Below are positions 15,128 through 64,000 of a stretch of 64,000 nt of DNA, in pieces (within the stretch, counting starts at the first letter, position 1; the number at the start of each line of letters is the position of its first letter). The notes below the pieces were generated by a model. That model saw only the letters and a list, made by a program, of their open reading frames with translations, was not told the origin of the DNA and ran no database searches. A program made the translations under genes and the position numbers. The stretch covers positions 177-64,176 of the forward strand of contig URYZ01000001.1 of the NCBI GenBank assembly GCA_900552235.1, written 5' to 3'. This DNA comes from an uncultured Mycoplasmatota bacterium. Its GTDB lineage: Bacteria; Bacillota_I; Bacilli_A; RF39; UBA660.

Positions 15128-17266
15128 TTAATCTACCTTTCTAACTGTTTCTGTTACATGTTTTACTTTATTTATTTCTTTTATACATCTATCTATTTCA
15201 GTTGTATTATTAACAAACAATGTTACTAAATATACATAATAAGATGATTTACTAATAATATTCATACTTTCTACTTGAATATTTATGTTATTAACAGCTT
15301 GCATTATATCAAATAAAATATTTTCATTTGATGAAGTGTACACAAGAAGTTCAGTATAATATTTATTTTTTGTAACACTATTAAATCTAGCATCAATTAC
15401 TTTTTCATCTAAAGTTTCAACATTTAAACAATTTTTTCTGTGAATACTAATGCCGTTATTTTTAGTGATAAATCCTATTATTTCATCACCAGGTACAGGA
15501 TAACAACAACTCGCAATATGTGTTTTTATATTATTTGTATCACCAACAATTATATCATTTTCAAAAGTTTTAGTAACAACTTTTTTAGGCTTTTCCTCTT
15601 CTTTTATTTCCTCTTCATCTTGTTTTTTCACAACACTTTTGGCACTATATTTACCATTACCTATATTAAGGTATAAATCTTCAAGATTATCTAATTTTAA
15701 TTCCTTTAAAACTTCATTTAAGTTTTCTTGTTTCATAAAATCAGTTATAGCTATTTTTTCTCTTCGTAATTCTTTTTCTAATAAATCTTTGCCACTTGTT
15801 ATATAATCTTCTTTACTTGTTTTATTAAAGAAAGCTTTTATTTTATTTTTAGCTTGAGTTGTTTTTGCAATATTTAACCATTCTCTTGAAGGTCCTTGAC
15901 TTGCTTTATTTGTTATTATCCTAATAACATCTGTATTTTTAAGCTCATATGATAAAGGTACCATATTATTATTCACAATAGCACCCACTGTTTTGTCCCC
16001 CACTTCACTATGAACACGATAAGCAAAATCAATTGGTGTAGAACCTTTAGGAAGTTCAAAGACATCTCCTTTTGGTGTATATACATAAATACTGTTATTT
16101 AAAACTTCATTTGTTACTGTATTAACAAAATCTTCATTACTTAATTTTTCTTCATTAAGCTCAATAATTGATTTATAAAACTGCAATTTTTGTTCTGTTA
16201 TGTTTTGCATTTCAACCGAAGCATTTTTTCCTTCCTTATAAGCCCAATGAGAAGCAATACCATTTTCAGCAATTTTATCCATATCATAAGTTCTTATTTG
16301 AATTTCAAAAAGGTTACCATCTGGTCCAATTACGGTTGTATGAAGAGTTTGATAAAGATTAGTTTTAGGCATAGCAATATAATCTTTAAATCTTTTAGGA
16401 ATAGGTTTATATTTTGAATGAATAAGTCCTAAAGCTAAATAACATTCTTGTTCTTTTTCGACAAGAATTCTAATAGCAAGAAGATCATATATATCATTAA
16501 AACTTCTACCTTTATCAAGTTTTTTATAAATACTATAAATACTTTTAGAACGTCCTTTTATTTCATGTTTTATTTTATTTTGCTTAAGTAAATTACTTAC
16601 TTCATCCATCATATTATTAACATAAGAATCTCTTTCCACTTTAGTTGTATTAAGTTTTTCGGCAATATCAAAATATATTTCAGGTTTTAAATATTTTAAA
16701 GATAAATCTTCTAGTTCACTTTTAATTTTATGCATTCCAAGTCTATGAGCTATCGGTGCAAGTATTTCTAGTGTTTCTTTTGCCTTTTTCTTTTGTTTTT
16801 CAACTGGTAAAGCATAAAGTGTTCTCATATTATGGAGTCTATCAGCTAGTTTTACAATAATAACTCTTACATCCTCACTCATTCCTACGATTATTTTTTT
16901 ATAATAACTTGTTAAATATTCATTCTCTGTTGAAATATTTATATTGTTAATTTTAGTAACACCATCAACAAGTTTTGTTATTTCTTTGCCAAATTCTTTT
17001 TCCATTTCATCCATACTTGTATCAGTATCTTCTAAAGTATCATGTAAAAGTCCTGCACATATTGTTTCTTTATCTGCTTTTATTGTTGTTAAAATATAAG
17101 CCACATTTAAAGGATGAATTATATATGGTTCACCAGTTCTTCTTCTTTGCCCATCATGCTTTTCTTTAGCAAAGTGATATGCTTTATCAATTAGTTTTAT
17201 ATCTTCATCATCTAAATATGTTAAATTATTTCTTACTGTTTCGTAACTAATATCCTCTTTTTTCAT
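15128..17266 (-). CDS. relA: Bifunctional (p)ppGpp synthetase/hydrolase RelA/SpoT
   Basis: It has an HD domain (HDGQRRRTGEPYIIHPLNVAYIL), a synthetase domain and TGS/ACT C-terminal domains, in 712 aa. Confidence 0.9.
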   Translation of the reverse strand: MKKEDISYETVRNNLTYLDDEDIKLIDKAYHFAKEKHDGQRRRTGEPYIIHPLNVAYILTTIKADKETICAGLLHDTLEDTDTSMDEMEKEFGKEITKLVDGVTKINNINISTENEYLTSYYKKIIVGMSEDVRVIIVKLADRLHNMRTLYALPVEKQKKKAKETLEILAPIAHRLGMHKIKSELEDLSLKYLKPEIYFDIAEKLNTTKVERDSYVNNMMDEVSNLLKQNKIKHEIKGRSKSIYSIYKKLDKGRSFNDIYDLLAIRILVEKEQECYLALGLIHSKYKPIPKRFKDYIAMPKTNLYQTLHTTVIGPDGNLFEIQIRTYDMDKIAENGIASHWAYKEGKNASVEMQNITEQKLQFYKSIIELNEEKLSNEDFVNTVTNEVLNNSIYVYTPKGDVFELPKGSTPIDFAYRVHSEVGDKTVGAIVNNNMVPLSYELKNTDVIRIITNKASQGPSREWLNIAKTTQAKNKIKAFFNKTSKEDYITSGKDLLEKELRREKIAITDFMKQENLNEVLKELKLDNLEDLYLNIGNGKYSAKSVVKKQDEEEIKEEEKPKKVVTKTFENDIIVGDTNNIKTHIASCCYPVPGDEIIGFITKNNGISIHRKNCLNVETLDEKVIDARFNSVTKNKYYTELLVYTSSNENILFDIMQAVNNINIQVESMNIISKSSYYVYLVTLFVNNTTEIDRCIKEINKVKHVTETVRKVD

Positions 17267-17577: not shown

Positions 17578-18723
17578 TTAATTTAGTAAAGATTTTATTA
17601 TTTCTACTTTATCTAATTTTTCCCATGGTAAATTATCCTTTCCAAAATGTCCGAAACAAGTTGTTAAATGATATATTGGTTTTGAAAGTTCTAGTTCATT
17701 TATGATATTTTGTGGTTCAAAATTAAATACTTTATTTATGATTTCTAATATTTTATCTTCAGGTATTTTATTAGTGTTATAAGTATTTATATATAGTGAA
17801 ACTGGTTTTGACATACCTATTGCATATGATACTTGAAGTTCCATTTTAGAACAGATTTTAGACGCTACGATATTTTTACAAACATATCTTGCATAATAAG
17901 AAGCACTTCTGTCAACCTTTGTATAGTCTTTACCAGAAAAAGCACCTCCACCATGACCACAAACCCCTCCATATGTATCAACAACTATTTTTCTACCAGT
18001 TAAACCACTATCAGCAATCGGACCTCCAAGAACAAATCTACCTGTTGGGTTAATATAGATTTTAGTATTTTCATTTATCATTTCTTTTGGAATAGTTTTA
18101 TCTATAATTTTTTCTTTTATATCTTTTCTTAAAGTATCTAAATCTATTTCATCATGCTGTGCTGAAATAACTATTGTATCTACATATTTTGGTACATCAT
18201 CAATATAACATATTGTAACTTGTGTTTTACCATCTGTCCTTAGGTATGGGATTTTTTTTGTTTTAAAAGCATTATATAACTTTTCTGACAATTTATTTGC
18301 TAAATATATAGAATATGGCATAAAGTTTTCTGTTTCATCTGTAGCATAACCAAACATCATTCCTTGATCACCTGCCCCAAGAAGTTTAGAATCACTTGAT
18401 GTATTTACTCCCATAGCAATATCATTTGATTGAGTATTAATGTTTATACTAACTTTAACATTATTTCCATTAAAACCTAGATTATCATTATCATAACCAA
18501 CGTCAATAATGGTATTTCTAACAATTCTTTCAATGTCAATTTTTGCCTTACTTGTTACTTCACCCATAACTACTATTCCATTTTTATGGGCACATACTTC
18601 TACAGCCACTCTTGAAGAACTATCTTCTTTTAAATATGCATCTAATATCATATCTGCTATTTTGTCACATAACTTATCTGGATGTCCAGGTGTTACTGAT
18701 TCTGATGTAAATAATTTTTTCAT
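17578..18723 (-). CDS. metK: S-adenosylmethionine synthetase
   Basis: MKKLFTSESVTPGHPDKLCDKIADMILDAYL...GGGAFSGKDYTKVDRSASY is canonical MetK. Confidence 0.95.
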   Translation of the reverse strand: MKKLFTSESVTPGHPDKLCDKIADMILDAYLKEDSSSRVAVEVCAHKNGIVVMGEVTSKAKIDIERIVRNTIIDVGYDNDNLGFNGNNVKVSININTQSNDIAMGVNTSSDSKLLGAGDQGMMFGYATDETENFMPYSIYLANKLSEKLYNAFKTKKIPYLRTDGKTQVTICYIDDVPKYVDTIVISAQHDEIDLDTLRKDIKEKIIDKTIPKEMINENTKIYINPTGRFVLGGPIADSGLTGRKIVVDTYGGVCGHGGGAFSGKDYTKVDRSASYYARYVCKNIVASKICSKMELQVSYAIGMSKPVSLYINTYNTNKIPEDKILEIINKVFNFEPQNIINELELSKPIYHLTTCFGHFGKDNLPWEKLDKVEIIKSLLN

Positions 18724-26060: not shown

Positions 26061-26072
26061 TTCTTTTATTTT

Positions 26073-27998: not shown

Positions 27999-28010
27999 AA
28001 AAGTCCTCCT

Positions 28011-29402
28011 TTAAAATCTAAAATATAAAAATGGATTATAAGAACTATCTATTAAATATGCTGTTACAAGAAGAAGTAATATTATTAAAAATATTGGTTC
28101 TAAAACATTTATAATTTTATTTAAACATTTACTTTTCTTTAATTTTTCTATTATATTTTTAAATAAAGGAGTTGCTCCGAAAATTGCTATAATTAAAACT
28201 ATTAAATAACTTTTTAAATAATAAATTGTATAATTATTTATAAATACTTCTTTATTTAATCCAAATAAACCTTTTATATTGAAAAATGCTTCATTTATAC
28301 TTCCGGCGTTAAACATTATAAAACTAATCATAATAATAAATAAAACATAAATATTTCTTAGAAATTTAGGTAATTTAGAAATATATTTACTTAACCATAA
28401 TTTTTCTATTACAAGAAAAACTCCGATAAATAATCCCCATAGAATAAAATTATATGCTGCACCATGCCATATTCCTGTAAGAAACCAGACAATTAAAATA
28501 TTTCTAACTAATTTAAGTGTTCCTTTTCTACTTCCTCCAAGAGGAATATATACATAATCTTTAAACCATGAACTTAAAGATATATGCCATCTACGCCAAA
28601 ATTCTGTTATACTTTTAGAAATAAATGGATAATTAAAGTTTTCTAAAAAAGTAAAACCAAACATTTTTCCAAGACCAATAGCCATATCACTATAAGCAGA
28701 AAAATCAAAATAAACTTGTAACATATAACTTATTGCAAAAATCCAATAAAATAAAACACTTCTTTCATCAACTAAACTAAATTTCGTACACAATTCTCCA
28801 AGCATATTAGCTATAAGTACTTTTTTAGCTAGTCCAATTATAAACCTTCTTACTCCTAAAGAAAACTTTTCAATTGTTTCATCTCTATTATCTAATTCAT
28901 CACAAATTGTTTCATATCTAACAATAGGACCTGCGATTAACTGAGGGAATAAAGACACATAAGTTGCTAGTTTTAAAATATTTTTTTGGACTTTTACTTT
29001 TCCTCGATAAACATCTATTACATAACTAAGTATTTGAAAAGTATAAAAAGATATTCCTATAGGAAGTGCAATATTCAAAAAACTAATATTGGATTTAAAT
29101 ATTGAATTAATCGTGCCAATAAAAAGATCTGTATATTTAAATACACAAAGAAGCCCGATATGTATAATTATGGTTATTAAAAAAATCTCTTTACTTTTAT
29201 ATTTATCTATTAATAAAGCATCAAAATACGCTACAAGAATCTCTACTAACATTAAAATAACATATTTAGGTTCACCATACATATAAAAAATAATAGAAAA
29301 TATAAGTAAAATATAATTTCTATATTTTTTAGGTGTTATAAAATATAATATTATTATCGTGGGTAAAAAATAATATAAAAAACTTATACTTGTAAATAAC
29401 AT
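28011..29402 (-). CDS. MBOAT-family membrane O-acyltransferase (AlgI/DltB-like)
   Basis: It is polytopic, with the conserved FWRRWHISLSSWFKDYVYIPLGGSRKG and the catalytic His region. Confidence 0.8.
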   Translation of the reverse strand: MLFTSISFLYYFLPTIIILYFITPKKYRNYILLIFSIIFYMYGEPKYVILMLVEILVAYFDALLIDKYKSKEIFLITIIIHIGLLCVFKYTDLFIGTINSIFKSNISFLNIALPIGISFYTFQILSYVIDVYRGKVKVQKNILKLATYVSLFPQLIAGPIVRYETICDELDNRDETIEKFSLGVRRFIIGLAKKVLIANMLGELCTKFSLVDERSVLFYWIFAISYMLQVYFDFSAYSDMAIGLGKMFGFTFLENFNYPFISKSITEFWRRWHISLSSWFKDYVYIPLGGSRKGTLKLVRNILIVWFLTGIWHGAAYNFILWGLFIGVFLVIEKLWLSKYISKLPKFLRNIYVLFIIMISFIMFNAGSINEAFFNIKGLFGLNKEVFINNYTIYYLKSYLIVLIIAIFGATPLFKNIIEKLKKSKCLNKIINVLEPIFLIILLLLVTAYLIDSSYNPFLYFRF

Positions 29403-29449
29403 AATTTCCTCCTTATAAATAAAGCACCAAATAAATGGTGTTTTATTTT

Positions 29450-30016
29450 TTAATTAGCTAATAATTCATCTGGTAATTCTATATTATTACTTTTAGTAAG
29501 TTCCTTACCTATATTATTATTAACATATTTTTTAAAATTATTATATACAGATGTAGCCCATTCTTCATTTGTCATAACTAGGAAAATAACATTTCCACTA
29601 TTTGTTATATATAACTTATCAGCACTAACACAAATCCACATATCCATATCAATATTATCTAACATTTCTTGTTTCATTTTTTCTACATTAGCACCATCTT
29701 TAACTTTAACAACTGACAATAAATAAGCTTGTGATGTCATAGTTGGAATAGAAACAACTAATGCTTCAACATCTTTATTAGACTGTAACCCTGTATAAGC
29801 AGTTACTTCATCTTCATTTTTAACATTAATTACAGATGTAGCAAGTTCTGGTAAATCTACTTGCTTATAAATAGTTTTAATCATACTTTTAATATTGCTT
29901 ACACTGTTAATTGTACCTGTTCCCTTTTTATTATTAAATAAAAATAATACTACTCCTACTAACACTACTAATACTAAAATAGATATAAAAACTAATTTTT
30001 GTTTATCTTCTTTCAT
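29450..30016 (-). CDS. Hypothetical membrane-anchored protein (DUF4358-like)
   Basis: It has an N-terminal TM helix followed by a soluble domain of about 150 aa. Its family is uncertain. Confidence 0.3.
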   Translation of the reverse strand: MKEDKQKLVFISILVLVVLVGVVLFLFNNKKGTGTINSVSNIKSMIKTIYKQVDLPELATSVINVKNEDEVTAYTGLQSNKDVEALVVSIPTMTSQAYLLSVVKVKDGANVEKMKQEMLDNIDMDMWICVSADKLYITNSGNVIFLVMTNEEWATSVYNNFKKYVNNNIGKELTKSNNIELPDELLAN

Positions 30017-30107
30017 TACTTATCCTCACTTTCTTTATTATATTTCTATTATATCAAAAAAAAATAATATTTCCAATTGTTTTTTAATAATTACATAATA
30101 AAAAGGC

Positions 30108-30455
30108 CTATGACCTTTTTATTTCGTTGTCTTTACTTATAATAACATTATTATCCAATGACTTTGGTGTATAATTTATTATATTTTGATTCTTTAACAA
30201 ATCATATATTGTAGGAGCCCCAATAAAACTAAAAATAGCCACCCAAATTCCACTTATTGTATCTAAATTATAAAATGTTTTAGAAAAGAAAACACCAAAT
30301 GTTAAAGATAATATTATATTAATTAACCATATTTGACATTTACTTTTAACTATTGTAGTTAATTTTATTTTTTGAATCAAAGCCATTAAAACAACAGATA
30401 ATACTGCACTTATAGATAAAAGATCTAATAACTTATCTGGGATAAATCCTTCCAT
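30108..30455 (-). CDS. Small 3-TM membrane protein (holin-like topology)
   Basis: It is 115 aa with three hydrophobic helices. No motif was recognised. Confidence 0.3.
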   Translation of the reverse strand: MEGFIPDKLLDLLSISAVLSVVLMALIQKIKLTTIVKSKCQIWLINIILSLTFGVFFSKTFYNLDTISGIWVAIFSFIGAPTIYDLLKNQNIINYTPKSLDNNVIISKDNEIKRS

Positions 30456-30463
30456 AAACCTCC

Positions 30464-30775
30464 TTATTTTATAGGTATGTTATCTAGTTTCTTTATTAAA
30501 TCTTCAATAATATCACAACATTCAAGTTTCTTATACACTTCATACATATCTATAATATTTTGTTTTTCATATATACTTATTTCTTTTTTTTCAATTAATA
30601 AATTATATTGTTCTATTATATTAGACTTTAACATAACAATAACACCCTTATTAGTGGCATCAAGTGTTTTTTTATAATTTTTTATAGTTTTTACAAAATA
30701 TGTTAAAAATGAAAATATTAATCCAAATAAAACCTCTATCCAATACTTTAATATAAACTCTATAATAATAACCAC
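30464..30775 (-). CDS. Hypothetical 103-aa protein with an N-terminal TM helix
   Basis: It is an ORF only. Confidence 0.3.
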   Translation of the reverse strand: MVIIIEFILKYWIEVLFGLIFSFLTYFVKTIKNYKKTLDATNKGVIVMLKSNIIEQYNLLIEKKEISIYEKQNIIDMYEVYKKLECCDIIEDLIKKLDNIPIK

Positions 30776-30860
30776 CTCTAGTATATATTATGAAATATTA
30801 AATATATTGAATAGAATAAGTATAATAAAAAATATAGCTAAATTAATAGCTACATTTATT

Positions 30861-31454
30861 TTATTCGTTTGTAAATGTAAAACGAGCAGAAATATTAGAA
30901 TAAGCAGTTCCATTTTGAGGATAAGATGAAAATACACCAGCACTTGAGCCATTACTATACTGAGAGCCACGTGAAAACCAAGGACTAGGAGAAACCACAA
31001 TTCCAAAATTATCATTATACCACCCATTTGTTTCTGTTAAAGCGTGGCCTTGATATGATGATGTTGTATAATTGTTGAAATATTTATCATTAGGGAATGT
31101 AGAAGAAGTAAAGCCTGAACTTCCTATAGTTTTTGAATAACTACCCATAACATAATCCCATGCTCCTCCACTCATATCATATATTCCATATATATTTCCT
31201 GTTGTTGATGCTCTCATTCCAAAAGCTGTATCATAAGAATTTGTTGTTGCTCCGGTATATGAACTTCCTGCTTCTGCACCTATTCCTGTTATATAAGTAC
31301 TATTATTATTTATTCCTACTTCAGTACTTACAAATCCAAAACTATTCCCTGTTTGTTCCATACTTCTACTTGCAAAAAAGAAATTACTTACACTATTATA
31401 CCTTAAACTCTTTACGCTTGGTTTTATTATTATTCCATTAGCATTACTTAACAC
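30861..31454 (-). pseudogene. 5'-truncated paralogue of the FGE/SUMF1-like (C-type-lectin-fold) C-terminal domain; GTG start immediately after an in-frame TGA, with no RBS or signal peptide
   Basis: NANGIIIKPSVKSLRYNSVSNFFFASRSMEQTGNSFGF...IYGIYDMSGGAWDYVMG...GHALTETNGWYND...WFSRGSQYSNGSSAGVFS...ISARFTFTNE is about 70-90% identical to residues about 372-622 of CDS 33577..35445 and to 62632..63909. The FGE motifs IYDMSGxxWE and RGGS-W are recognisable. Confidence 0.55.
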
Positions 31455-31493
31455 TCAAATATTTAATAATTAGACTTATTAACATTTTTCAAA

Positions 31494-31524
31494 ACTTCCC
31501 GCAGGATTTCACCCTGCAGGGAAG
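31494..31524 (-). other. GC-rich hairpin (11-12 bp stem with one bulge) immediately after the orphan repeat copy
   Basis: The minus strand reads TGA-TTTTT-CTTCCCTGCAGGG-TGAAAT-CCTGCGGGAAG-TTTTG. Confidence 0.6.
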
Positions 31525-31530
31525 AAAAAT

Positions 31531-31709
31531 CATAATCCAAGTGTATATGGATTACTTTCAGTTCCATCACCACCAGTGATTTGTACTGCAGATGTTAGAT
31601 AAACAACTGGCCTGACCGCAAAGTGGTAGGCGCCGACGTTGTTGTTGTTAACGTTCCCATCCGAATTGACATTGAACGCATTGTTACTGTTACTGCTATT
31701 CTGGGGCAA
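31531..31709 (-). repeat. Orphan repeat copy: DGR-like template-repeat (TR) candidate rich in AAC/AAT codons
   Basis: In-frame translation gives LPQNSSNSNNAFNVNSDGNVNNNNVGAYHFAVRPVVYLTSAVQITGGDGTESNPYTLGL*. It has no start codon. It is homologous to the 3' end of CDS 31858..33390, and the differences there are at its adenines. Confidence 0.6.
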
Positions 31710-31820
31710 TCAAACATACCTTATATATATAAATAATTTAATTATAACTTTTATTATTATAATTAATTATATATACCTTTACTACTTCTTTTTATAATTT
31801 ATACTTATTAACAATTTTTT

Positions 31821-31851
31821 TACTTCCCGCAAGATGTTACCTTGCAGGGAA
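31821..31851 (-). other. GC-rich hairpin immediately after the stop of CDS 31858..33390 (VR-flanking), with compensatory base changes relative to the 31494-31524 copy
   Basis: The minus strand reads TAG-AATAG-CTTCCCTGCAAGG-TAACAT-CTTGCGGGAAG. AAG/CTT here corresponds to AGG/CCT in the other copy. Confidence 0.6.
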
Positions 31852-31857
31852 GCTATT

Positions 31858-33390
31858 CTAAACACCAAGTTGATATGGATTACTTTCAGTTCCATCACCG
31901 CCAGTGATTTGTACTGCAGATGTTAGATATAGGACTGGCCTGACCGCAAAAGGGGTGATGCTGACGTAGAGGCGGTTGTAAACGTTCCCATCCGAATGGA
32001 CAAGGAACGCATCGCTACTGCCACTGCTACCCTGGGGCAATAACCATTCAGTTTCTTTTATATTATATAACCAGTTTGTATCATTACATGCTCGTAAATC
32101 TGTTGTTTCTGTATCATTTAATTTCTTTGTTTCACAATTAGCGCTTGCATATCCATAATCACTTTCATACATTAATGCTAGTTTTCCAACCCAACTATTT
32201 GGATTTGTAGAGTAATAATAATCACTTCCACTTATCTTTCTTTCATAACTATACATATCTTGTGATGTTTGAGAAGTAGCATTATATCCACCTAAATAGT
32301 ATTTTGAACTACTTATCATACTTTGTGCTTCACTTGTTAACGTATTATAATAATCTCCATTTAAATAGGTATTTAGTGTTGCTGGTCTTGCCCAATTATT
32401 TGTACAACTAGAACACTGTTCAGGTGCAGTCATCATAATATTATATTTGTCTTTTTCTTCTAAATATTTAACTTTTATTTTATTGTCATCTTGTAATAAT
32501 AATAAATTATCATTTTTACTATCATAATTATATGCTGTTGTTCCATCATCCCAAGAATAAGTTCCTATACTTTCGTTTCTTATTAGTTTTATTCTATTTT
32601 CTATGTTGCCATTTTCATCTTCTGTTGGAAATACTCCAATTATTCTCCATATTTCATTATTAAATGTTACATAGTTTTTTGGACTTGCTCCACGATATCT
32701 ATACTCTGTTACACTTTCTGTTGTTCCTATTTGAAGGGTACTATCTGCACTATGAACTATTGTATATAATCCACTATCATTTAGGTTATCTGTTTGTGAT
32801 ATTAATGTTTCTGTTCCTATTGGAATACTTTCTATATTTTGTATTCCATTTATTTTTAATGTAAGAAATATTTTTTGTCCCACTAATGCTTCTTTTGCTT
32901 CATCTTCTAAGTTTCCAAAATCTAACCATAATCTTAATTTATAATTAACTGTATCTTCGACATCTAATGTTACTTTGTCTATTAATCTATTTACATCTTT
33001 TAAATTTACGATTATTTCTTTACTATTATTTTTTAATAATCCTACTTTTATATATTTTTCATTTAATATTGTTCCTGTATAACTTGAATTAGGTTTATCT
33101 ACTAATGATATTTCATAATCTGTTATTGTATTTCCTGTATTTTTTATTGTAAATTCATAATATTCTTCTTGGGCCATTCCTTCATAATCTGTTAATTCTT
33201 GTAAATTATTTAAAACTAGTCCATTTGTACTTTCTGTTAATGTAAAATTTACTACTCCTGTTTTTATAATATGATTTTTATTTGTATTTATTGTATTTTC
33301 ATATATTGCAAATGTTGTACCTATTACAATTGATGTTACTCCTAATAAAGTAAGTAACATTGCTATTTTTCTTTTCATATTTTCTTTCAT
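31858..33390 (-). CDS. Secreted protein: SipW-type signal peptide plus TasA/camelysin-like N-domain, with a C-terminal DUF1566/Lcl-like C-type-lectin-fold domain carrying the candidate DGR variable repeat (VR, about 31860-32039)
   Basis: The N-terminus MKRKIAMLLTLLGVTSIVIGTTFAIYENT...IIKTGVVNFTLTES...NLQELTDYEG...EYYEFTIKNTG aligns to the TasA N-region (GGGTWAAFND...GTLDLS...NLKPGD...FQFENNGS). The C-terminus ...TEWLLPQGSSGSSDAFLVHSDGNVYNRLYVSITPFAVRPVLYL resembles the DUF1566 W-LP...AVRxV motif. The 3' 180 nt are GC-rich. Confidence 0.7.
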   Translation of the reverse strand: MKENMKRKIAMLLTLLGVTSIVIGTTFAIYENTINTNKNHIIKTGVVNFTLTESTNGLVLNNLQELTDYEGMAQEEYYEFTIKNTGNTITDYEISLVDKPNSSYTGTILNEKYIKVGLLKNNSKEIIVNLKDVNRLIDKVTLDVEDTVNYKLRLWLDFGNLEDEAKEALVGQKIFLTLKINGIQNIESIPIGTETLISQTDNLNDSGLYTIVHSADSTLQIGTTESVTEYRYRGASPKNYVTFNNEIWRIIGVFPTEDENGNIENRIKLIRNESIGTYSWDDGTTAYNYDSKNDNLLLLQDDNKIKVKYLEEKDKYNIMMTAPEQCSSCTNNWARPATLNTYLNGDYYNTLTSEAQSMISSSKYYLGGYNATSQTSQDMYSYERKISGSDYYYSTNPNSWVGKLALMYESDYGYASANCETKKLNDTETTDLRACNDTNWLYNIKETEWLLPQGSSGSSDAFLVHSDGNVYNRLYVSITPFAVRPVLYLTSAVQITGGDGTESNPYQLGV

Positions 33391-33471
33391 AATATCAACA
33401 CCTTATTAACTTTATAAATTAATTATATAAAACACCCTCCCCAGGTTGTCAATATTTTTTATACATTTTAA

Positions 33472-33501
33472 CAAAAAAGACGAAGTTTTAAAGTTCGTCT
33501 T
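33472..33501 (-). terminator. Rho-independent terminator after CDS 33577..35445
   Basis: agacgaagttttaaagttcgtct. The stem is AGACGAA/TTCGTCT and is followed by TTTTTTG on the minus strand. Confidence 0.55.
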
Positions 33502-33576
33502 AAAGTAATTTTTCTTTTTAAATATTATTTTTATTAATTATTAGTAACTCATTCTAAAATCAAAATTTTATTTTGA

Positions 33577-35445
33577 TTATTCATTTATTATTACGAATCG
33601 TGAAGATAGATTTTTGTCTCCTCCTCCAGGAGAACCAATAAAATTAAATATTATTGCTGATAAAGACATATTGTATCCTCCACCTCTATAAAAACAAGGT
33701 TGACTTTTGTCAGCAAAAAATGCAAAAGAACCATACCAATCTTGTGTTTCAGTTAATGCATGACCTGTATAAGATGATCCTGTATATAGATTATAATACT
33801 TACTATCTGGAAACGCTATTCCTGTATAGGTTGTTCCATCACTCAACATTCCTGTAAATCCTGAATTAGAACTAATAGTATATCCTGATCTTGGTTTTCC
33901 ATTTGTATCTGCAAATATTCCCATAACAAATTCATAACTTCCACCTGCCATATCATATATTCCATATATTGTTCCTGTTGTTGAGGCATCTTTTCCAAGT
34001 GTTGTATTATATGCTCCATTTGTTGCAGAATCATTGCTTCCTGCAGGCGCTCCATATCCTGTTATTGTATTTTGATTATTATTAATTCCTACTGCCGCAC
34101 ATGTTGTACTATTAGTGCATCTTCCATATATACTTTGAGTTAAATATGCTACTGCCCCCCATTCATTATTTTTACTCATATGAGTATCTACTTCATCCTT
34201 TATAAATCCAAAACTATTTCCTGTTTGTTCCATACTTCTACTTGCAAAGAAGAAATTACTTAAATTATTATATTGTAAACTTGTTACATTTGGTTTTATT
34301 ATTATTCCATTAGCATTACTACATGTTTCATTTGTACATCCTAAATTATTTTTTGTCGTATTTGATGCTAAAGTTGCATGTCCTGTTTCAAACTTACCAT
34401 ACCAAAATCCGCTTAACTCTTTATTTCCAAAAGTAAATGCATCGATTGCAGGTTCATTTTGTTTAGCAAATGTTACATCTATTGCATTTGGTTTAGTTTT
34501 TGTTCCTCCATTATAATTACTTGGTGTTACAGCTTTAAATCTTGGTATCCATACCCACATTGTATTTATGTCATCCATACTTATTGTTGTACCTGGTGTT
34601 GCATTTAAATAAGTTTGTCTATTTGTATCTTTTACTGTTACAGCATTTGCCCACATTCCTTTATTTTCTCCACTTGATTCATAACTATACCATCTATAAT
34701 CTTTTTGTGAATTATTCTTATCTGCTTTTTTCCATACATTATTTGATTCATCATAATATACTGGAATCATATTTGATGCTAAAACTGGTTTATTTGCTCC
34801 ACTTGTATCTAAATTTTGTTCTATTGTACTTACATTAACTTTAAACTTAAAAGTACAACCTGTTAAAGAAATATTAGTTTTACTATCATCTATTTCTTGT
34901 TTTACTGTATATTTACTCATATTAATATCACTTTTTAACCATACTCTTAATCTATATGTATGTGTTTGTATTTCATTTGAATTATTATACATAAAACTAT
35001 TATTATATATTACTTTAGCATTAGCTATTTTTTTACTATTTCCTAAATTACTTATTAATATAGGATTTACTAATGCATTATCATTACCATCAGTTAAATA
35101 TGCTTTAACATCATTTTCTTCAAAACTATTAGTAGTACTTGTTTTAAGTATAGATATTTCATAATTAATACTCATATCTTTAACTAAATTACTTGCTACA
35201 TTAAACTCAAAATAATTTTCTTTAATTCCTTCTGTATCACTTTTTGGTTCCATATTAGTTATAGATATTTTATCTTCACTTTCTTTATATGTAAATGATA
35301 TTACATCTGTTGATACAAAATGTGTTTTTTGTCCTTCTAATTTTATTTTATAATAAGCATAACTTACTAATATAATACAACTTAATAAAGTTATAAATAA
35401 AGGTATTAATTTTATAAACAATTCTTTTTTATTAACATTTTTCAT
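33577..35445 (-). CDS. Secreted protein: SipW-type signal peptide plus TasA/camelysin-like N-domain, with a C-terminal FGE/SUMF1-like C-type-lectin-fold domain
   Basis: The N-terminus MKNVNKKELFIKLIPLFITLLSCIILVSYAYYKIK...HFVSTDVISFTYKES...ITNMEPKSDTEG...ENYFEFNVASN is TasA-like. The C-terminal FGE-like motifs are IYGIYDMAGGSYEFVMG, GHALTETQDWYG and FYRGGGY...LSSRFVIINE. Confidence 0.7.
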   Translation of the reverse strand: MKNVNKKELFIKLIPLFITLLSCIILVSYAYYKIKLEGQKTHFVSTDVISFTYKESEDKISITNMEPKSDTEGIKENYFEFNVASNLVKDMSINYEISILKTSTTNSFEENDVKAYLTDGNDNALVNPILISNLGNSKKIANAKVIYNNSFMYNNSNEIQTHTYRLRVWLKSDINMSKYTVKQEIDDSKTNISLTGCTFKFKVNVSTIEQNLDTSGANKPVLASNMIPVYYDESNNVWKKADKNNSQKDYRWYSYESSGENKGMWANAVTVKDTNRQTYLNATPGTTISMDDINTMWVWIPRFKAVTPSNYNGGTKTKPNAIDVTFAKQNEPAIDAFTFGNKELSGFWYGKFETGHATLASNTTKNNLGCTNETCSNANGIIIKPNVTSLQYNNLSNFFFASRSMEQTGNSFGFIKDEVDTHMSKNNEWGAVAYLTQSIYGRCTNSTTCAAVGINNNQNTITGYGAPAGSNDSATNGAYNTTLGKDASTTGTIYGIYDMAGGSYEFVMGIFADTNGKPRSGYTISSNSGFTGMLSDGTTYTGIAFPDSKYYNLYTGSSYTGHALTETQDWYGSFAFFADKSQPCFYRGGGYNMSLSAIIFNFIGSPGGGDKNLSSRFVIINE

Positions 35446-35512
35446 AATATATACGCTCCTTTATCTTTCATATTAATTTTAACATATATTTATTATAAAA
35501 AAAAGAACTTTT

Positions 35513-36133
35513 TTAAAATTCTTTCTTACAATATATTTGTAATTTACATTTATTACAACTTGGTTTTTTAGAAGTACAATAATACCTTCCAAATAATACA
35601 AATTGTTTATGTAATTTACTCCATATATTCTTATCAAATTTTCTTTTTAATTTTTCTTCTATTTTTATTACATCATCATCTTTTTTAACTAACCCTAATC
35701 TTTTACTTACTCTTTCTACATGAGTATCTACTGCGATAGTTGGTTCATTAAACAATTCACTTAAAACAACATTTGTTGTTTTTCTTCCTACCATTGGTAA
35801 GTTTTCTAAAACCTTTCTATTATTAACTACTTTACCATTATACTTTTCATCTAATATTTTAGCAATGTTTATAATAGCTTCACTTTTTTTATGATAATTT
35901 CCAAGTTCTTTTATAATATTTTCTATATCTTTTATATTTGCTTCTTTTAATTTTTTTAAACTATCATATTTATTAAATAATACTTTTGTTACTTTATTTA
36001 CTCTAGCATCTTTAGTTTGTGCACTTAACATTACTGCTAATAATAATTCATAATCTTTATTATAATTTAATTCACAAACAGGATTAGGTATTATTTCATT
36101 TAAATAATTTAAAATTTCTTTTTCTTTATTCAT
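35513..36133 (-). CDS. nth: Endonuclease III (DNA glycosylase/AP lyase)
   Basis: The HhH-GPD region LPMVGRKTTNVVLSELFNEPTIAVDTHVERV and the C-terminal [4Fe-4S] motif CTSKKPSCNKCKLQIYC are present. Confidence 0.9.
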   Translation of the reverse strand: MNKEKEILNYLNEIIPNPVCELNYNKDYELLLAVMLSAQTKDARVNKVTKVLFNKYDSLKKLKEANIKDIENIIKELGNYHKKSEAIINIAKILDEKYNGKVVNNRKVLENLPMVGRKTTNVVLSELFNEPTIAVDTHVERVSKRLGLVKKDDDVIKIEEKLKRKFDKNIWSKLHKQFVLFGRYYCTSKKPSCNKCKLQIYCKKEF

Positions 36134-36771
36134 TCTTCATCTAACCAATCATAATCAAATAAATCAATTTTTTCTTCTTTTACTTGTCTTTTTTTAACAA
36201 CATCACTTGGTTTTTTATATCCTTTTTTATTCCATTCATATAAAATTCTATCAATATATTTTAAATTATTAACCCCATTTAAAATAGCTTCTTTTAAAGC
36301 TTCTTTTATTAAGTCTTCACTTATATTAGAATCTAACCAACCTTTTATTGTTTCATATTCAATAGGACTTAAACATCTACCAAATTCTTTTTCTATAACA
36401 TCATATATTGTAGAAGTTTCTTTACTTTCAGTTTCACTTTCATTTAAAATCATAACAATTATTTTATCATATAAACTACTTATATCTAAATATTCCCTTA
36501 TCATCCCTGTTTCTTTTTTATCTGTTACCATAGTTATAATATTTTTAGAAGTTAAACTATCTATAAGTTCCATTATTTCTGGTATACTAAGTGATGTACT
36601 AATAGAAAACTTATTTATATCAAATAATATTTTATCATTAAATGTAATTAAATAAGATAAAAAAATCAACTCTTTTTCACTTATATTAAGTTTTTTATAA
36701 GTTTTTAACAAATAAGAAGGTATTACTATATTATTTGTTTTCATTATATCTAATATATTTTTTGTTTTCAA
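36130..36771 (-). CDS. dnaD: DnaD-domain replication initiation/membrane attachment protein
   Basis: It has a DnaD-like C-terminal domain (...IEYETIKGWLDSNISEDLIKEALKEAILNGVNNLKYIDRILYEWNKKG). The dnaD-nth synteny matches B. subtilis. Confidence 0.7.
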   Translation of the reverse strand: MKTKNILDIMKTNNIVIPSYLLKTYKKLNISEKELIFLSYLITFNDKILFDINKFSISTSLSIPEIMELIDSLTSKNIITMVTDKKETGMIREYLDISSLYDKIIVMILNESETESKETSTIYDVIEKEFGRCLSPIEYETIKGWLDSNISEDLIKEALKEAILNGVNNLKYIDRILYEWNKKGYKKPSDVVKKRQVKEEKIDLFDYDWLDEE

Positions 36772-36809
36772 AAAACATCACTTCCTAACAATTGTTTTTT
36801 ATTATAACA

Positions 36810-37898: not shown

Positions 37899-37981
37899 AA
37901 GTGTACTTCCCTTCATACTAATTATAACAAAAAATATAAAATAAAAAAAGAAGAAAAAGAAAAAAGCCCTAAGGCTTCTTA

Positions 37982-38254: not shown

Positions 38255-38401
38255 TTAAATTTACCTCCCTATAAATTTATAAGCAATTTATTCTCATACG
38301 ATGCTTACATATATAAAGTAACATAGTTAGCTTGTAAAATCAAGAAATTTGACTATTTTTTATAAATTTTTCACATTTTTTACAAAATTTGTTTTATATG
38401 T

Positions 38402-38430: not shown

Positions 38431-38454
38431 TTTATTGAATAGGAAGGTATGAAT

Positions 38455-62631: not shown

Positions 62632-64000
62632 CTATTCATTGGAAATTACAAGACGCGAAGAGTAGCCAGAAGCCGAAATACCATAGCTGCCGGCGAAGCC
62701 AAACACTCCTGCACCTGCAGTCGCACCAAAGTAGTAGCTGCCGCCACGATAGAACCATGGGTAAATCGTATTAGCGAAGTAAACGCTATCACTATACCAG
62801 CCAGCTGTTTCTGTTAAGGCATGACCTGTATAAGATGATTCTGTATATAAATTATAATATTTACTATCCGGAAAAGAAACTCCTGTATATGTTGTTCCAT
62901 CTTTTAACATACCAGTAAAGCCTGAATTATATGATGAACTATCGCCAGATCTTGGGTTACCATTTGTATCTGCAAGTACTCCCATGACATATTCACTTGC
63001 TCCACCACTCATATCATATATTCCATATATATTCTTTGTTGTTGAAGCTCCTGTTCCTTTTCCCTTTGCCTTTTTTCCTTTTGTATTTGTATCATAGTTT
63101 AATAAATAATCATCATATGTATAAAATCCATATGTATTATAATTTGTTGTACTTGTTTGATCGGTATATGTTCCATTTATTGGTGTCTTCCCTGCTGCTC
63201 CTCCACTTCGCCCTGTATAATATCCTTCACTATTATTTATATATACTTCAGTACATGTTGTACTAGTAGTACATCTTCCATAGATACTTTGAGTTAAGTA
63301 AGCTACTGCTCCCCATTCATTATTTTTACTCATATGGGTATCTACTTCGCTTGAAACAAATCCAAAACTATTTCCTGTTTGTTCCATACTTCTACTTGCA
63401 AAAAAGAAATTACTTACATTATTATATCTTAAACTTTTTACATTTGGTTTTATTATTATGCCATTTGCGTTACTACATGTTGTAGTTGTACACCCTAAAT
63501 TATTGTTAGTTGTACTTGATGATAAGGTACTGTGACTCACTTCAAACTTAGCATACCAAAATCCACTTAACTCTTTTGTTCCAAAAGTAAAGGCATCAAT
63601 TGCTGTTTCATTTTGTTTTACAAATGTTACATCTATTGCTCCAGGATTATCTTTTGTTCCTCCATTATAATTACTTGGTGTTACTACATTAAATCTTGGT
63701 ATCCATACCCACATTGTTGTTATATCATTCATACTTATTGCTGTACCTATACTTGCATTTAAATATTTACTTCTACTTGAACTTGTTACAGTTACCGCAT
63801 TAGCCCACATCCCATTATTATAATTATACCATTTATAAGTATTATTAGGATTAGCTAAATCTGCTTTTTTCCATGTTTCTGTTGTTTCATCATAATAAAC
63901 TGGGAGCATGTTTGATACTAGAACTGGTGCATTTGGTTTTTTTTCTATTTTCCCTACAGTAGCTTCAATTACATTACTACTTGTTTTTGTAAAACTAAAT
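62632..64000 (-). CDS. Paralogue of 33577..35445 (TasA-like N-region plus FGE/SUMF1-like C-type-lectin-fold domain), 5' end beyond the window; it has a GC-rich, A-depleted 3' end
   Basis: The reading frame stays open to position 64000 (FSFTKTSSNVIEATVGKIEKKPNAPVLVSNMLPVYYDE...). It is about 90% identical to gene 33577..35445 through NANGIIIKPNVKSLRYNNVSNFFFASRSMEQTGNSFGF...DTHMSKNNEWGAVAYLTQSIYGRC. Its C-terminal 40 aa (FYRGGSYYFGATAGAGVFGFAGSYGISASGYSSRLVISNE) are unique. Confidence 0.7.
   Translation of the reverse strand, partial: FSFTKTSSNVIEATVGKIEKKPNAPVLVSNMLPVYYDETTETWKKADLANPNNTYKWYNYNNGMWANAVTVTSSSRSKYLNASIGTAISMNDITTMWVWIPRFNVVTPSNYNGGTKDNPGAIDVTFVKQNETAIDAFTFGTKELSGFWYAKFEVSHSTLSSSTTNNNLGCTTTTCSNANGIIIKPNVKSLRYNNVSNFFFASRSMEQTGNSFGFVSSEVDTHMSKNNEWGAVAYLTQSIYGRCTTSTTCTEVYINNSEGYYTGRSGGAAGKTPINGTYTDQTSTTNYNTYGFYTYDDYLLNYDTNTKGKKAKGKGTGASTTKNIYGIYDMSGGASEYVMGVLADTNGNPRSGDSSSYNSGFTGMLKDGTTYTGVSFPDSKYYNLYTESSYTGHALTETAGWYSDSVYFANTIYPWFYRGGSYYFGATAGAGVFGFAGSYGISASGYSSRLVISNE

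Follow-up and report, generated by a model that had tools for sequence, protein, structure and literature searches.

A diversity-generating retroelement target gene beside a probable template–target hybrid in an uncultured gut bacterium

Two similar sequence modules lie on the minus strand of the 64-kb stretch of DNA analyzed here (the window), one closing a secreted-protein gene (B) and the other, copy 2, an orphan downstream of it. The pair raises the question of whether a diversity-generating retroelement (DGR) shaped the gene and, if so, what became of its machinery. A preliminary description proposed that mutagenic retrohoming from a template repeat (TR), represented by copy 2, had produced a variable repeat (VR) at the C terminus of B, and that the partner genes act in trans, lie just beyond the window, or have been lost in a decayed relic.

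Adenine-specific mismatches and the target gene

B (31858..33390, minus strand; 510 aa, a listed ORF) begins with a hydrophobic signal-like segment at its N terminus and ends, after a middle region, in a DUF6273-like/C-type-lectin-like domain bearing the VR. The VR (31935..32041, minus strand) forms the C terminus of B, is opened by ATTGCCCCAG and closed by TTTGCGGTCAGGCCAG, and has diversified codons (31951-32031) that are all NNC or NNT. On aligning 73 nt of the VR (31969-32041) with copy 2 (31638-31710) on the minus strand, with one 3-nt gap, we found mismatches at 14 of the 28 adenine sites of copy 2 and at none of the 45 non-A sites (Fisher p = 1.1e-7). Exact alignment and tabulation thus confirm the original count of 14 mismatches, all at adenines of copy 2, and every one of the AAY codon changes listed with it is correct. 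The adenine-only pattern does not extend into the next block of 15–18 nt or into the 3′ tail. In the block, copy 2 has GTCGGCGCCTACCAC (31623-31637) where the VR has TAC GTCAGCATCACCCCT, and the changes are not confined to adenines and include a difference of one codon in length, a real discrepancy of which the preliminary description had warned. The final 92 nt of the pair show ordinary divergence: 4 of the 27 A sites are changed, as are 7 of the 65 non-A sites (p = 0.41). The existence of two module copies holds, but their extent had been put too low at ~180 nt; the homology covers ~280 nt (32041->31790 vs 31710->31462) and spans the stop codon, a conserved 12-bp hairpin (31822-31853/31495-31524), and ~30 nt of flank. 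VR and copy 2, with GC contents of 57% and 50%, are two of the three GC-richest spots in the window, which has 24.9% overall.

The same pattern is seen in further VR alleles. Five alleles (the window, L013, L014, L017, and L035), of which the last four come from other samples and the first is the one allele representing the window's exact strain, differ from the 5′ part of copy 2 at 13–15 of 28 A sites and 0–3 of 45 non-A sites. Among the four window-type alleles (the window, L013, L014, and L017), 21 of 22 variable columns lie at TR adenines, which is the outcome anticipated when a cross-strain comparison of the VR was proposed. Judged by sequence comparison, the adenine-only mismatch pattern is the work of a DGR, and the core claim that mutagenic retrohoming shaped the C-terminal VR is supported because the adenine-specific statistics, the four further alleles, and an intact colinear cassette in relatives (described below) all bear it out.

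The target domain had been assigned to the DUF1566/Lcl-type class of C-type-lectin targets. We retain the lectin-like fold and replace the family: DUF1566 (PF07603) has no match at E ≤ 0.1 in B or in sets of 24 and 50 relatives, and the domain is DUF6273-like instead. Pfam DUF6273 scores 22.2 bits (E = 1.4e-4) on the C-terminal domain of B alone, against a gathering threshold of 23.5 bits, and matches 32 of 50 representatives of the B family, with a best E of 2.5e-10. DUF6273 and DUF1566 are related folds. An AF2 model of the target domain built from a 50-sequence alignment of cluster representatives reached a pLDDT of 85.8 and a pTM of 0.81 and was accepted, a shallow 24-sequence alignment having given a pLDDT of only 36; it places the VR in the C-terminal strands and loops of a predicted C-type-lectin-like fold. 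The nearest solved structure to the diversified domain is a DUF6273 domain, the N-terminal domain of a gut-bacterial IgA peptidase (9QA6). Family matches and model together identify the target domain of B as DUF6273-like with a C-type-lectin-like fold. The C terminus is hypervariable among homologues of B. An exact look-up of protein B found no record, and a profile search of PDB sequences with the target domain gave no match.

Upstream, B adjoins A (33577..35445, minus strand; 622 aa, a listed ORF), one of a family of paralogous secreted proteins, supported by repeats D1-D8, in which the C-terminal domain is FGE-sulfatase-like. The same protein is encoded beside the endonuclease III gene in L004, L009, and L012. 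A search of NCBIfam returned nothing for B or for the A family.

The intact cassette of relatives and the two parts of copy 2

When the window's ORFs of 150 aa or more were scanned for the motif [YF]xDD, two unrelated ones alone were returned (15128..17266 and 17578..18723), and tblastn of the cognate RT, Avd, and MutS-like proteins against the 64 kb gave no match better than E = 0.5; for the cognate MutS-like (MSL) and Avd proteins the best value was E = 1.3, and no accessory protein was recognized in the window. The initial observation that no RT or avd ORF is present is thereby confirmed for the window. Two downstream ORFs of 103 and 115 aa were considered as Avd and rejected, as they have no Pfam match, are membrane-protein-like, and are kept at the MBOAT locus (see below) in TR-less strains.

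An intact cassette is carried by “Mycoplasma sp. CAG:611” (L024, HF999781.1) and eight metagenome contigs (L025-L032), all with the same order on one strand: target with VR, hairpin, AT spacer of ~110 nt, TR, ~245 nt, MutS-like ORF, bAvd, and RT. In L024, VR tail, hairpin, spacer, and TR are followed by a 126-aa MutS_I-like ORF, bAvd, and a 373-aa RT. The bAvd protein matches PF22296 (1.4e-9) and NF033474 DivGenRetAVD (1.5e-9), and the RT matches RVT_1 (5e-18) and has the motifs GLPIGNMTSQ and YMDD; throughout L024-L032 it lies 0.9 kb downstream of a TR homologous to copy 2. The TR is identical in L024, L025, and L028-L031, and no two of the VRs in L025, L029, L030, and L031 are alike, with 18–21 of 35 A sites and 0 of 70 non-A sites changed; by this record the canonical cassette has been active in the relatives. 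Three carriers (L026, L027, and L032) have an A-depleted TR with flanks otherwise intact. The exact protein of the cognate RT is indexed in 338 blocks, and its cluster has 58 members.

Searches for a window-type template were also made. An N-masked VR/TR pattern, which required TGGG..CGTT and was over-specific in that it missed the canonical TR, found nothing in species-representative genomes or IMG/VR and one extra VR (L017) in JGI metagenomes. The shorter pattern AATGCGTTCAATGTCAATTCGGA found CAG:611 and had no match in viral contigs, and a translated TR peptide search found the canonical TR ORF (P0123) and no intact window-type TR. The RT cluster next in similarity (P0143, 72% identity), considered as the missing window-type cassette, comes from another organism that shares the architecture (L043), and an N-rich TR-like ORF at contig starts in L020-L023, from another lineage, has no VR or RT downstream.

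The window is colinear with the cassette from 31938 to 31599 (L024 1-322; also L025 8469-9055) and departs from it past GGCCAG (31607). The colinear stretch includes an AT-rich spacer (31711..31821, minus strand) between the first hairpin and copy 2 that is homologous to the canonical VR-to-TR spacer. The orphan copy itself (31607-31710, minus strand) was compared with both the VR and the canonical TR. Its 5′ part (31638..31710, minus strand) is genuine TR sequence with unmutated AAY codons, reading ...AAT AGC AGT AAC AGT AAC AAT GCG TTC AAT GTC AAT TCG GAT GGG AAC GTT AAC AAC AAC AAC, and has the same upstream flank as the canonical TR. At non-A positions the VR agrees with copy 2 and not with the CAG:611 TR (AGC AGT vs GCT AGC). 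The VR is one codon longer than copy 2, so that its exact parental TR has not yet been seen.

In the junction zone (31607..31637, minus strand) copy 2 reads GTC GGC GCC TAC CAC TTT GCG GTC AGG CCA G, at the position where the canonical TR reads GTC AAC AAC AAC CAG TTT GCC GTT CGG CCA G. The block GTC GGC GCC TAC CAC aligns with GTC AAC AAC AAC CAG and looks like mutagenized AAC codons, GGC, GCC, and TAC being products of A-mutagenesis of AAC; the block codons are NNC in all VRs, as an (AAC)n template predicts. The final codon of the block, CAC against CAG in the canonical TR, is a non-A difference. Homology to the canonical TR ends at GGCCAG (31607), where the alignment with L025 stops.

Beyond this point the 3′ part of copy 2 (31530..31606, minus strand) encodes the C-terminal tail (VVYLTSAVQITGGDGTESNPYTLGL and stop) of a second target paralogue, B2, and is VR-type, not TR-type. 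It has one mismatch to the B2 tail of L035 before the last three codons. High-identity homology to the B2 genes of the MBOAT locus begins at 31637 in L041, 31619 in L033, and 31582 in L042, and from 31582-31637 downward the MBOAT loci are 97–99% identical to the window. Past the junction, canonical TRs continue as ACCTTTATAAAATGTG toward the RT genes; immediately after GGCCAG the canonical TR has the IMH*-like ACCTTTATAAAATG, whereas copy 2 has TTGTTTATCTAACATCTGCAG, which is VR-type and shared with the true VRs of L014 and L035. In place of an IMH*, copy 2 therefore carries VR-type sequence and then a target-type hairpin. The suggestion that the 3′ mismatches reflect IMH versus IMH* is rejected for GTTGTT versus GTCCTA, since GTTGTT is found in true VRs (L014 and L035). 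Copy 2 is thus a template repeat, as first described, over its 5′ 73 nt but not at its 3′ end, a B2 VR-type region that matches the canonical TR up to 31607 only. These alignments establish the B2 origin of the 3′ part, the colinearity, and the breakpoint.

Both VR-type sequences are followed by a hairpin. The first (31822..31853, minus strand), directly after the stop codon of B, has a stem of 12–13 bp interrupted by one bulge, with TAACA as its loop; it folds as DNA at -10.5 kcal/mol (z = -5.6) and is kept after every VR of the B family. It was not scored as an intrinsic terminator and is without a T-run after the stem. The second (31495..31524, minus strand; CTTCCCTGCAGGG TGAAA TCCTGCGGGAAG; -11.1 kcal/mol, z = -4.4) is the target-type hairpin of the B2 remnant and is identical to the hairpin behind the VRs of L024, L018, L019, and L042; its loop includes GAAA, fitting the GRNA loop consensus (PMC3240598). 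Between the two hairpin alleles, a compensatory change turns an A-T pair into G-C. One element of the VR consists of a GC-rich 13-mer, GCGGTCAGGCCAG, and the next 21 nt, TCCTATATCTAACATCTGCAG (31914..31947, minus strand), a layout that parallels the (GC)14 and 21-bp IMH of BPP-1 (PMC3240598). In canonical cassettes TR/VR identity stops exactly after GGCCAG and is then partial for ~17 nt. By analogy, this element would have an IMH-like role and the hairpins may take part in homing. An Rfam scan of the locus found no known RNA.

Downstream of the B2 remnant is A′ (30861..31454, minus strand), a 197-aa ORF and 5′-truncated member of the A family with a weak Pfam FGE-sulfatase match (E = 0.003). 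It is the same 197-aa gene that lies behind B2 at the MBOAT locus of L041 and L042 and is ~316 bp shorter than the 333-aa gene of L013. In L033-L042 the MBOAT locus comprises RmuC, a 292-aa gene, B2 with its VR, hairpin, flank, A′, genes of 103, 115, and 188 aa, and MBOAT. The canonical position of the accessory genes is accordingly occupied by B2 remnant sequence, contrary to the suggestion that they lie just outside the window. Neither a TR nor an RT lies within 10 kb of the B-like genes with mutagenized VRs at the MBOAT locus (L033-L042) and at the S1-CdsA locus (L013-L015); the VRs imply at least three template skeletons, only one of which was found together with its RT.

Origin of the orphan copy

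We consider it fairly probable that this is a DGR target locus whose local template was broken by a switch into the 3′ end of B2 and whose RT cassette is absent. Copy 2 is best read as a TR::VR2 recombinant lacking that cassette, which matches the decayed relic among the options originally offered. An intact element would copy TR RNA into cDNA, inserting random bases opposite adenines, and this cDNA would take the place of the VR, with the GC-rich IMH-like element and the hairpin behind it probably guiding the exchange. Copy 2 preserves such a TR in its 5′ 73 nt, of the template lineage by which the window VR and several VRs of other genomes were written. Its passage into the 3′ end of B2 falls at the GC-rich element or directly ahead of it; what follows is, on this reading, the mutagenized GGC GCC TAC of B2, then a VR-type IMH, tail, hairpin, and flank, and A′. 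The simplest cause, we infer, would be that the TR recombined with the homologous VR of B2. In this event the TR may have lost its own 3′ end (IMH* and spacer RNA region), and the MutS-like/Avd/RT genes may have been displaced from this position or deleted. The hybrid is probably unable to serve as a template, so that the VR of B would be frozen unless a compatible DGR acts in trans.

Against this reading, the mutated block may stem from self-homing or short-patch homing into the template and not from B2 (compare L026, L027, and L032), and an RT may be encoded elsewhere in the genome, outside the 64 kb covered. In addition, the contig links loci that are separate in all other strains examined, endoIII-A-... 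(L001-L010) and RmuC-...-B2-A′-MBOAT (L033-L042), and may therefore contain an assembly error across a repeated gene family. The true genome would then have an intact cassette and a separate B2-A′-MBOAT locus, the assembler having jumped between similar repeats. The contig is metagenome-derived, the B-family and A-family genes are multicopy, the same-strain contigs L009, L012, and L016 break inside B (L009 being 100% identical to the window on the left), and more than 15 other assemblies show the two flanks unlinked. We nevertheless think such a jump unlikely. A de Bruijn jump needs a shared k-mer, and true VRs almost never keep four unmutated AAC codons beside the junction; two assemblies cross the junction unbroken, which argues that the reads held no competing path from this TR allele; and A′ has an independent 316-bp loss relative to L013, which fits a genuinely decaying region. 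The second of these assemblies (L016), with an identical junction and 100% identity to the window over 13.4 kb, is from the same strain and possibly the same sample, and is thus neither independent support for the junction nor informative on VR variation.

Copy 2 could instead be a working TR, served in trans by an RT and Avd encoded elsewhere in the genome, with the VR of B still diversifying. In its favor, this lineage often has remote targets, as at the S1-CdsA and MBOAT loci, the cognate RT occurs very widely, and the VR follows copy 2 at non-A positions; it is established that DGR targets can be remote and that avd, TR, and brt can be complemented in trans (PMC5758913). We regard this as distinctly improbable, given that copy 2 is without the TR-type 3′ flank present between TR and accessory genes in every intact cassette. 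In BPP-1, spacer RNA between TR and accessory genes is needed for priming. Moreover, the VR block is not derivable from copy 2, owing to the 3-nt length difference and the non-A changes, and the VR-type IMH and hairpin make copy 2 target-like rather than donor-like. The 5′ half of the hybrid is still template-type, and its 3′ half, with IMH and hairpin, is target-type. Speculatively, and with as little probability, the hybrid might remain functional within a multi-locus DGR network, where a trans-acting RT would use it as a template or as a decoy target that lacks a gene; the GGC GCC TAC block would then perhaps be a scar of short-patch homing. TR-by-VR recombination and the self-mutagenesis of templates, of which the A-depleted TR of L026, L027, and L032 would be an example, might in that case be routes that DGRs of gut bacteria regularly take to rearrange genomes and to switch themselves off.

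That no retroelement was involved, the pair being a partial gene duplication or a silent cassette for antigenic variation with an adenine bias due to chance or codon drift, is scarcely credible: recombination clearly shuffles tails, hairpins, and flanks among B paralogues (GTTGTT versus GTCCTA; two hairpin alleles), and the truncated A′ and copy 2 resemble such cassettes, but an adenine specificity at p = 1e-7 is repeated in four further alleles, drift in coding sequence cannot yield an AAY-rich copy, and a colinear homologous cassette includes Avd and a DGR-type RT.

The locus is a known kind of system, an ordinary DGR target in a decayed state, and leaves the known DGR mechanism unchanged. 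For annotation, the DGR footprint is clear, yet tools that search outward from an RT would overlook it, there being no RT within 64 kb; the locus also cautions that an “orphan TR” can be a recombinant of a template and the VR of another target. Biologically, the favored recombinant reading would provide a concrete route of template loss, and possibly of RT loss, leaving a frozen hypervariable surface protein. The locus also puts a family of four or more paralogous secreted proteins with the DUF6273/C-type-lectin fold under DGR diversification; their host, a low-GC spore former prevalent in the human gut, is related to “Mycoplasma sp. CAG:611.”

Comparison with known systems

DGRs with MSL and Avd accessory genes have been termed “Architecture D” (Wu et al. 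2018, PMC5758913), and L024-L032 share this architecture (target, TR, MSL, a bAvd-family avd, and an RT with IGxxxSQ and YMDD). The window has the target, hairpin, spacer, and TR portion of this layout in common with it but differs in being without MSL, avd, and RT and in having the TR fused to the 3′ end of another target gene.

With BPP-1 (mtd VR/TR, IMH/IMH*, and hairpin/cruciform; PMC3240598) the locus shares adenine-specific substitutions, a VR at the C terminus of a C-type-lectin-fold protein, a GC-rich element at the 3′ end of the diversified stretch, and a GC-rich hairpin downstream of the VR, here with a compensatory change and with one allele having a GAAA-containing loop. It differs in that the hairpin lies ~80 nt past the GC-rich element and after the stop codon, compared with reported distances of 4–34 bp (PMC3240598), in its 12-bp stem with a bulge and 5-nt loop, in the ~30 conserved undiversified codons behind the VR, and in being chromosomal and not phage.

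The DUF6273 DGR targets of gut Firmicutes phages (tentaclins, PMC10743442; Faecalibacterium prophages, PMC11792537) belong to the same domain family as B by transitive Pfam evidence, the window protein itself falling just under the Pfam threshold (22.2 vs 23.5 bits). They likewise have the VR at the C-terminal end of the domain, in the strands and loops of a C-type-lectin-like fold. Unlike these phage targets, B is not a phage tail or capsid protein but a chromosomal, multi-paralogue, signal-peptide-bearing protein of a spore-forming host.

The multi-target DGRs of Treponema denticola and Legionella (PMC5758913) differ from the present case in the number of template skeletons, the three or more implied here including the one found with an RT; they too have several paralogous targets at distant loci with mutagenized VRs and no local TR or RT.

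The variable repeat of gene B and its protein

Gene B (31858..33390, minus strand) encodes a 510-aa protein with the C-terminus ...EWLLPQGSSGSSDAFLVHSDGNVYNRLYVSITPFAVRPVLYLTSAVQITGGDGTESNPYQLGV*, and an orphan second copy of its 3' end, copy 2, lies ~330 nt downstream on the same strand. The preliminary description recognized a module present twice; both copies are real, but the length ascribed to them was too short, as exact alignment extends the similarity to ~280 nt in total (32041 to ~31790 vs. 31710 to ~31462), spanning the stop codon, a hairpin, and ~30 nt of flank. Across the first 73 nt (32041-31969 vs. 31710-31638) the variable repeat (VR) of B differs from copy 2 at 14 positions, all adenines of copy 2; 14 of its 28 A sites and none of its 45 non-A sites are affected (Fisher p = 1.1e-7), in agreement with the earlier claim of mismatches only at template adenines over the first codons. 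The caveats attached to that claim, a block not explained by A-only changes, a 3-nt length difference, and further 3' mismatches, were also borne out: the next block reads GTC GGC GCC TAC CAC in copy 2 versus TAC GTC AGC ATC ACC CCT in the VR, a one-codon difference that is not A-only, and mismatches in the final 92 nt have no A bias (4/27 A vs. 7/65 non-A sites; p = 0.41). Against a window average of 24.9% GC, the VR and copy 2 both rank among the top three 90-nt stretches by GC content.

DUF6273 was the only Pfam match to B (E = 2e-3 with the complete protein as query; 1.4e-4 with its last 180 aa, the latter at 22.2 bits against a cut-off of 23.5). An HMMER search of cluster representatives returned 3,247 relatives, with DUF6273 present in 32 of 50 sampled (best E = 2.5e-10); Pfam gave no DUF1566 match for B or the sampled relatives. 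An AF2 model built on a shallow alignment had a pLDDT of 36, and one built with 50 representatives aligned reached 85.8 (pTM 0.81), placing the VR residues in the last beta-strands and loops. The C-type-lectin fold proposed for this C-terminus thus holds in the model, whereas the proposed DUF1566 family gives way to a DUF6273-like domain. In published work, DUF6273 is a C-type-lectin-fold target of diversity-generating retroelements (DGRs), and its C-terminal end contains the VR (PMC10743442, PMC11792537). In alignment A7, 4 of 50 domain-family representatives have a prokaryotic N-terminal methylation (type IV pilin-like) motif, so that some relatives of the DGR-target domain are pilin-like fusions.

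Homologues of B (510-840 aa, from human-gut assemblies) share the frame WLLPQ..S.S..AF.V.SDG.V.......AVRPVLYL, in which the dotted residues vary among lineages. At the DNA level, VRs with the non-A skeleton of the copy 2 5' part (window-type) occur at three places: L013/L014, a different chromosomal locus; L017; and L035, in B2, a second target paralogue at an MBOAT locus. Relative to the copy 2 5' part, 13-15 of the 28 A sites are changed in these VRs, against 0-3 of the 45 non-A sites. The comparison of strains suggested in the preliminary description gave 22 variable columns among four VR alleles, 21 of them template adenines; the family is hypervariable exactly at template AAY codons. L016, the one further assembly of the window's strain, shows no difference from it over 13.4 kb, so the strain is represented by a single VR allele. 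Most of the close homologues among those of ~790-840 aa (P0001-P0105) have two tandem DUF6273-like domains, with the hypervariable WLLPQ...AVRPV frame in the C-terminal copy only; a conserved ...KQIFPT.YLKSNVLITGGDGTS closes the inner one.

A second candidate VR, of FGE type, lies at 62632-62830 (minus strand), at the C-terminus of a third gene of the family of A, the neighbour of B (33577..35445, minus strand). This 425-aa ORF (62632..63909) has a weak FGE-sulfatase match, and no other 90 nt in the window reach the GC content of its C-terminal stretch (62672-62761; 58%). Compared with the A gene of strain L004, its C-terminus differs mainly at codon positions 1-2, with NNC/NNT codons, and looks like a VR. 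Neither the window nor the other loci examined contained a template matching it.

Intact cassettes in related genomes

A six-frame scan for [YF]xDD in window ORFs of >=150 aa gave only two unrelated ORFs (15128..17266 and 17578..18723), and tblastn of the reverse transcriptase (RT), Avd, and MutS-like (MSL) proteins of the homologous cassette against the window gave a best E of 0.5, both in line with the absence of RT and avd from the 64 kb reported earlier. Rfam matches in the window were confined to class B RNase P RNA (7002-7338) and a SAM riboswitch (18784-18880), both on the minus strand and distant from the DGR locus. They are ordinary housekeeping features, the riboswitch lying directly upstream of ORF 17578..18723 (minus strand).

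Use of the translated template as query identified a small N-rich ORF, P0123, which has the upstream flank of copy 2 at its start and departs from the B reading frame directly after AVRP. Its contigs (L018 and L019) contain, in order, a VR, stop, hairpin, AT spacer, and template repeat (TR), and the VRs differ between the two samples. A 23-nt template pattern matches “Mycoplasma sp. CAG:611” (HF999781.1, L024), in which a VR tail, hairpin, and spacer lie upstream of a TR ending in ...AAC AAC AAC AAT GTC AAC AAC AAC CAG TTT GCC GTT CGG CCA G, followed after a gap of ~245 nt by a MutS_I-like ORF (126 aa), bAvd (115 aa; PF22296 1.4e-9, NF033474 1.5e-9), and an RT (373 aa; RVT_1 5e-18) with GLPIGNMTSQ and YMDD motifs. 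The exact RT protein occurs in 338 blocks of the indexed collection, and clustering at 90% identity groups 58 members with it. In eight complete loci (L025-L032) the cassette is chromosomal, between asnS and the gpmI/sigma-factor/S10 region. The TR is identical across L024, L025, and L028-L031, and L025, L029, L030, and L031 each have a VR of their own, changed at 18-21 of 35 A sites and at none of 70 non-A sites. The L024-type cassette is an active MSL + Avd-type DGR.

Three of these loci from different studies (L026, L027, and L032; ~8952-9060) have the canonical TR, that of intact L024-type cassettes, with ~22 substitutions and a 1-nt insertion. The substitutions are exclusively A->T, whereas VRs mix T, G, and C; the TR flanks and the exact RT protein are intact, and the adjacent VR is nearly the same in all three (one T/A difference, in L027). 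Their template is adenine-depleted and apparently self-silenced. The L018 VR (25-130) agrees with the L024-type TR (GAT GGG NNT GCG) at four non-A positions and is unlike the TR of its own contig (335-440; GAC GGT AAT GTC), which suggests either turnover of template alleles or a contig of mixed strains. Four samples of a different, higher-GC lineage (L020-L023) have a conserved 59-aa N-rich TR-like ORF (...NNAFNVNSTGNVNNNNVTNSYAVRPV...; ~170-430), ~200 nt from the contig start and followed by a 1481-aa dockerin protein. Neither a VR nor an RT was found within 7-10 kb downstream, and its partners presumably lie upstream, past the assembly break.

Composition and origin of copy 2

The window from 31938 to 31599 is colinear with L024 1-322, and colinearity with L025 ends at 31607, the end of the GC-rich GGCCAG closing the TR. 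Past GGCCAG, the canonical TR continues as ACCTTTATAAAATGTG... in the direction of the MSL, avd, and RT genes; copy 2 continues as TTGTTTATCTAACATCTGCAG..., then the remainder of a B-type C-terminal tail, a stop, a target-type hairpin, and flank. The window-type TR skeleton is CAG AAT AGC AGT AAC AGT AAC AAT ... GGG AAC GTT (AAC)n, and in an intact parental cassette it would be expected to run on into ACCTTTAT.

A look-up of the downstream 115-aa protein located the MBOAT locus in ten other assemblies (L033-L042), in the order RmuC, a 292-aa gene, B2 with its own mutagenised VR, hairpin, flank, A' (a truncated A-family member, 169 or 197 aa), 103-aa, 115-aa, and 188-aa genes, MBOAT, and DHHW. 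From 31582-31637 downward, identity between the window and these loci is 97-99%. The copy 2 tail is almost the same as the L035 B2 tail, with 1 mismatch ahead of the last three codons, and the copy 2 hairpin and flank are identical to those of L042. On the other side, L009 (run ERR1190952, PRJEB12124), which may derive from the window's own source sample, matches the window at 100% identity between 40000 and 33305, an interval that covers the endonuclease III gene, A, and the beginning of B. Given the colinearity break at 31607 and the B2-locus identity downstream, copy 2 is most plausibly a hybrid: the upstream flank and first 73 nt are template, and the part from the junction zone (31607-31637) on is the 3' end of the B2 target gene. 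The block GTC GGC GCC TAC CAC fits this reading: GGC, GCC, and TAC are expected adenine-mutagenesis products of the canonical AAC AAC AAC, and the block codons are NNC in every VR examined. A difference between IMH* and IMH, the 3' elements of TR and VR, had been considered for GTTGTT versus GTCCTA; it is ruled out by GTTGTT in true VRs of L014 and L035.

Between A' (30861..31454, minus strand) and the DUF4358/MBOAT/DHHW genes are two small ORFs of 103 and 115 aa (30108-30775, minus strand) that resemble membrane proteins. They are conserved at the MBOAT locus, the exact 115-aa protein occurring in 264 blocks of the indexed collection; as Avd candidates they were rejected, being membrane-protein-like and having no Pfam match.

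At ~31600 the contig joins the endonuclease III-A region (33305-40000) to the B2-tail-A'-MBOAT region (26000-31582). In all other strains fetched these are separate contigs with different neighbours, Polysacc_synt and MutS following the former and RmuC and the 292-aa gene preceding the latter. The link reflects either a rearrangement specific to this strain or a join made during assembly. We regard an artefactual junction as unlikely: the separation of the two loci elsewhere and the repetitive gene families would favour one, but a k-mer jump would need four unmutated AAC codons, almost never kept in real VRs, and two assemblies, which may share reads, cross the junction unbroken.

The simplest account of the hybrid is homologous recombination between the TR behind gene B and the VR of B2, linking the endoIII-A-B and B2-tail-A'-MBOAT regions. 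The TR's own 3' end would have been lost and MSL, avd, and RT displaced from this position, by deletion if the repeats were direct or by inversion if they were inverted, in which case a reciprocal RT-bearing hybrid would be expected elsewhere in the genome.

Copy 2 is without the TR-proximal spacer that separates TR from accessory genes in all intact cassettes. In BPP-1, the TR-proximal spacer region is required for priming. With target-type cis elements in place of the spacer, the hybrid is unlikely to function as a template. That copy 2 is nonetheless a working template served by an RT in trans is an improbable alternative, since its 3' anatomy and the block mismatch argue against it, even though remote targets are clearly present in the lineage (L013-L015, L033-L042). 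A duplication unrelated to DGR activity can be dismissed, being excluded by the A-site statistics and the homologous cassette.

The VR of B still has a GC-rich IMH-like element and hairpin, and could in principle be rewritten by a compatible trans DGR. Its non-A skeleton (AGC AGT...GGG AAC GTT...GCG GTC AGG) is that of copy 2 and not of the CAG:611 TR (GCT AGC...GGG AAT GCG...GCC GTT CGG), placing its last homing from a window-type template lineage. The VR is one codon longer than copy 2, so the exact parental TR is not among the sequences examined. The B2 VRs of L033, L040, L041, and L042 share non-A features unlike either the CAG:611 or the window-type TR (e.g., CAG NNT GGC GTT CGG for CAG TTT GCC GTT CGG, and GCC for GCT); such skeletons imply at least a third template variant.

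Comparison with known retroelements

The locus bears a genuine DGR footprint, and its host is a spore-forming, low-GC bacterium of the human gut related to “Mycoplasma sp. CAG:611”. The particular feature of the locus is probably a local template that has become a TR::VR hybrid without an RT cassette, a decay state. Its interest is modest, as an annotation lesson and an example of DGR breakage.

Downstream of each VR in the family is a GC-rich hairpin of 12 bp (-10.5 and -11.1 kcal/mol; z = -5.6 and -4.4), in two alleles distinguished by a compensatory A-T to G-C pair. No T-run follows it, and terminator scoring was negative. DGR targets need a downstream hairpin-type structure (PMC3240598), and by analogy we infer that this hairpin may act in DGR targeting. 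It differs from those reported in lying ~80 nt beyond the GC-rich element rather than 4-34 bp (PMC3240598), and has a 5-nt loop with a GRNA-like GAAA in one allele only. Both the architecture and the target-domain class of the locus are already known, the L024-type cassettes corresponding to “Architecture D” of Wu et al. 2018 (PMC5758913).
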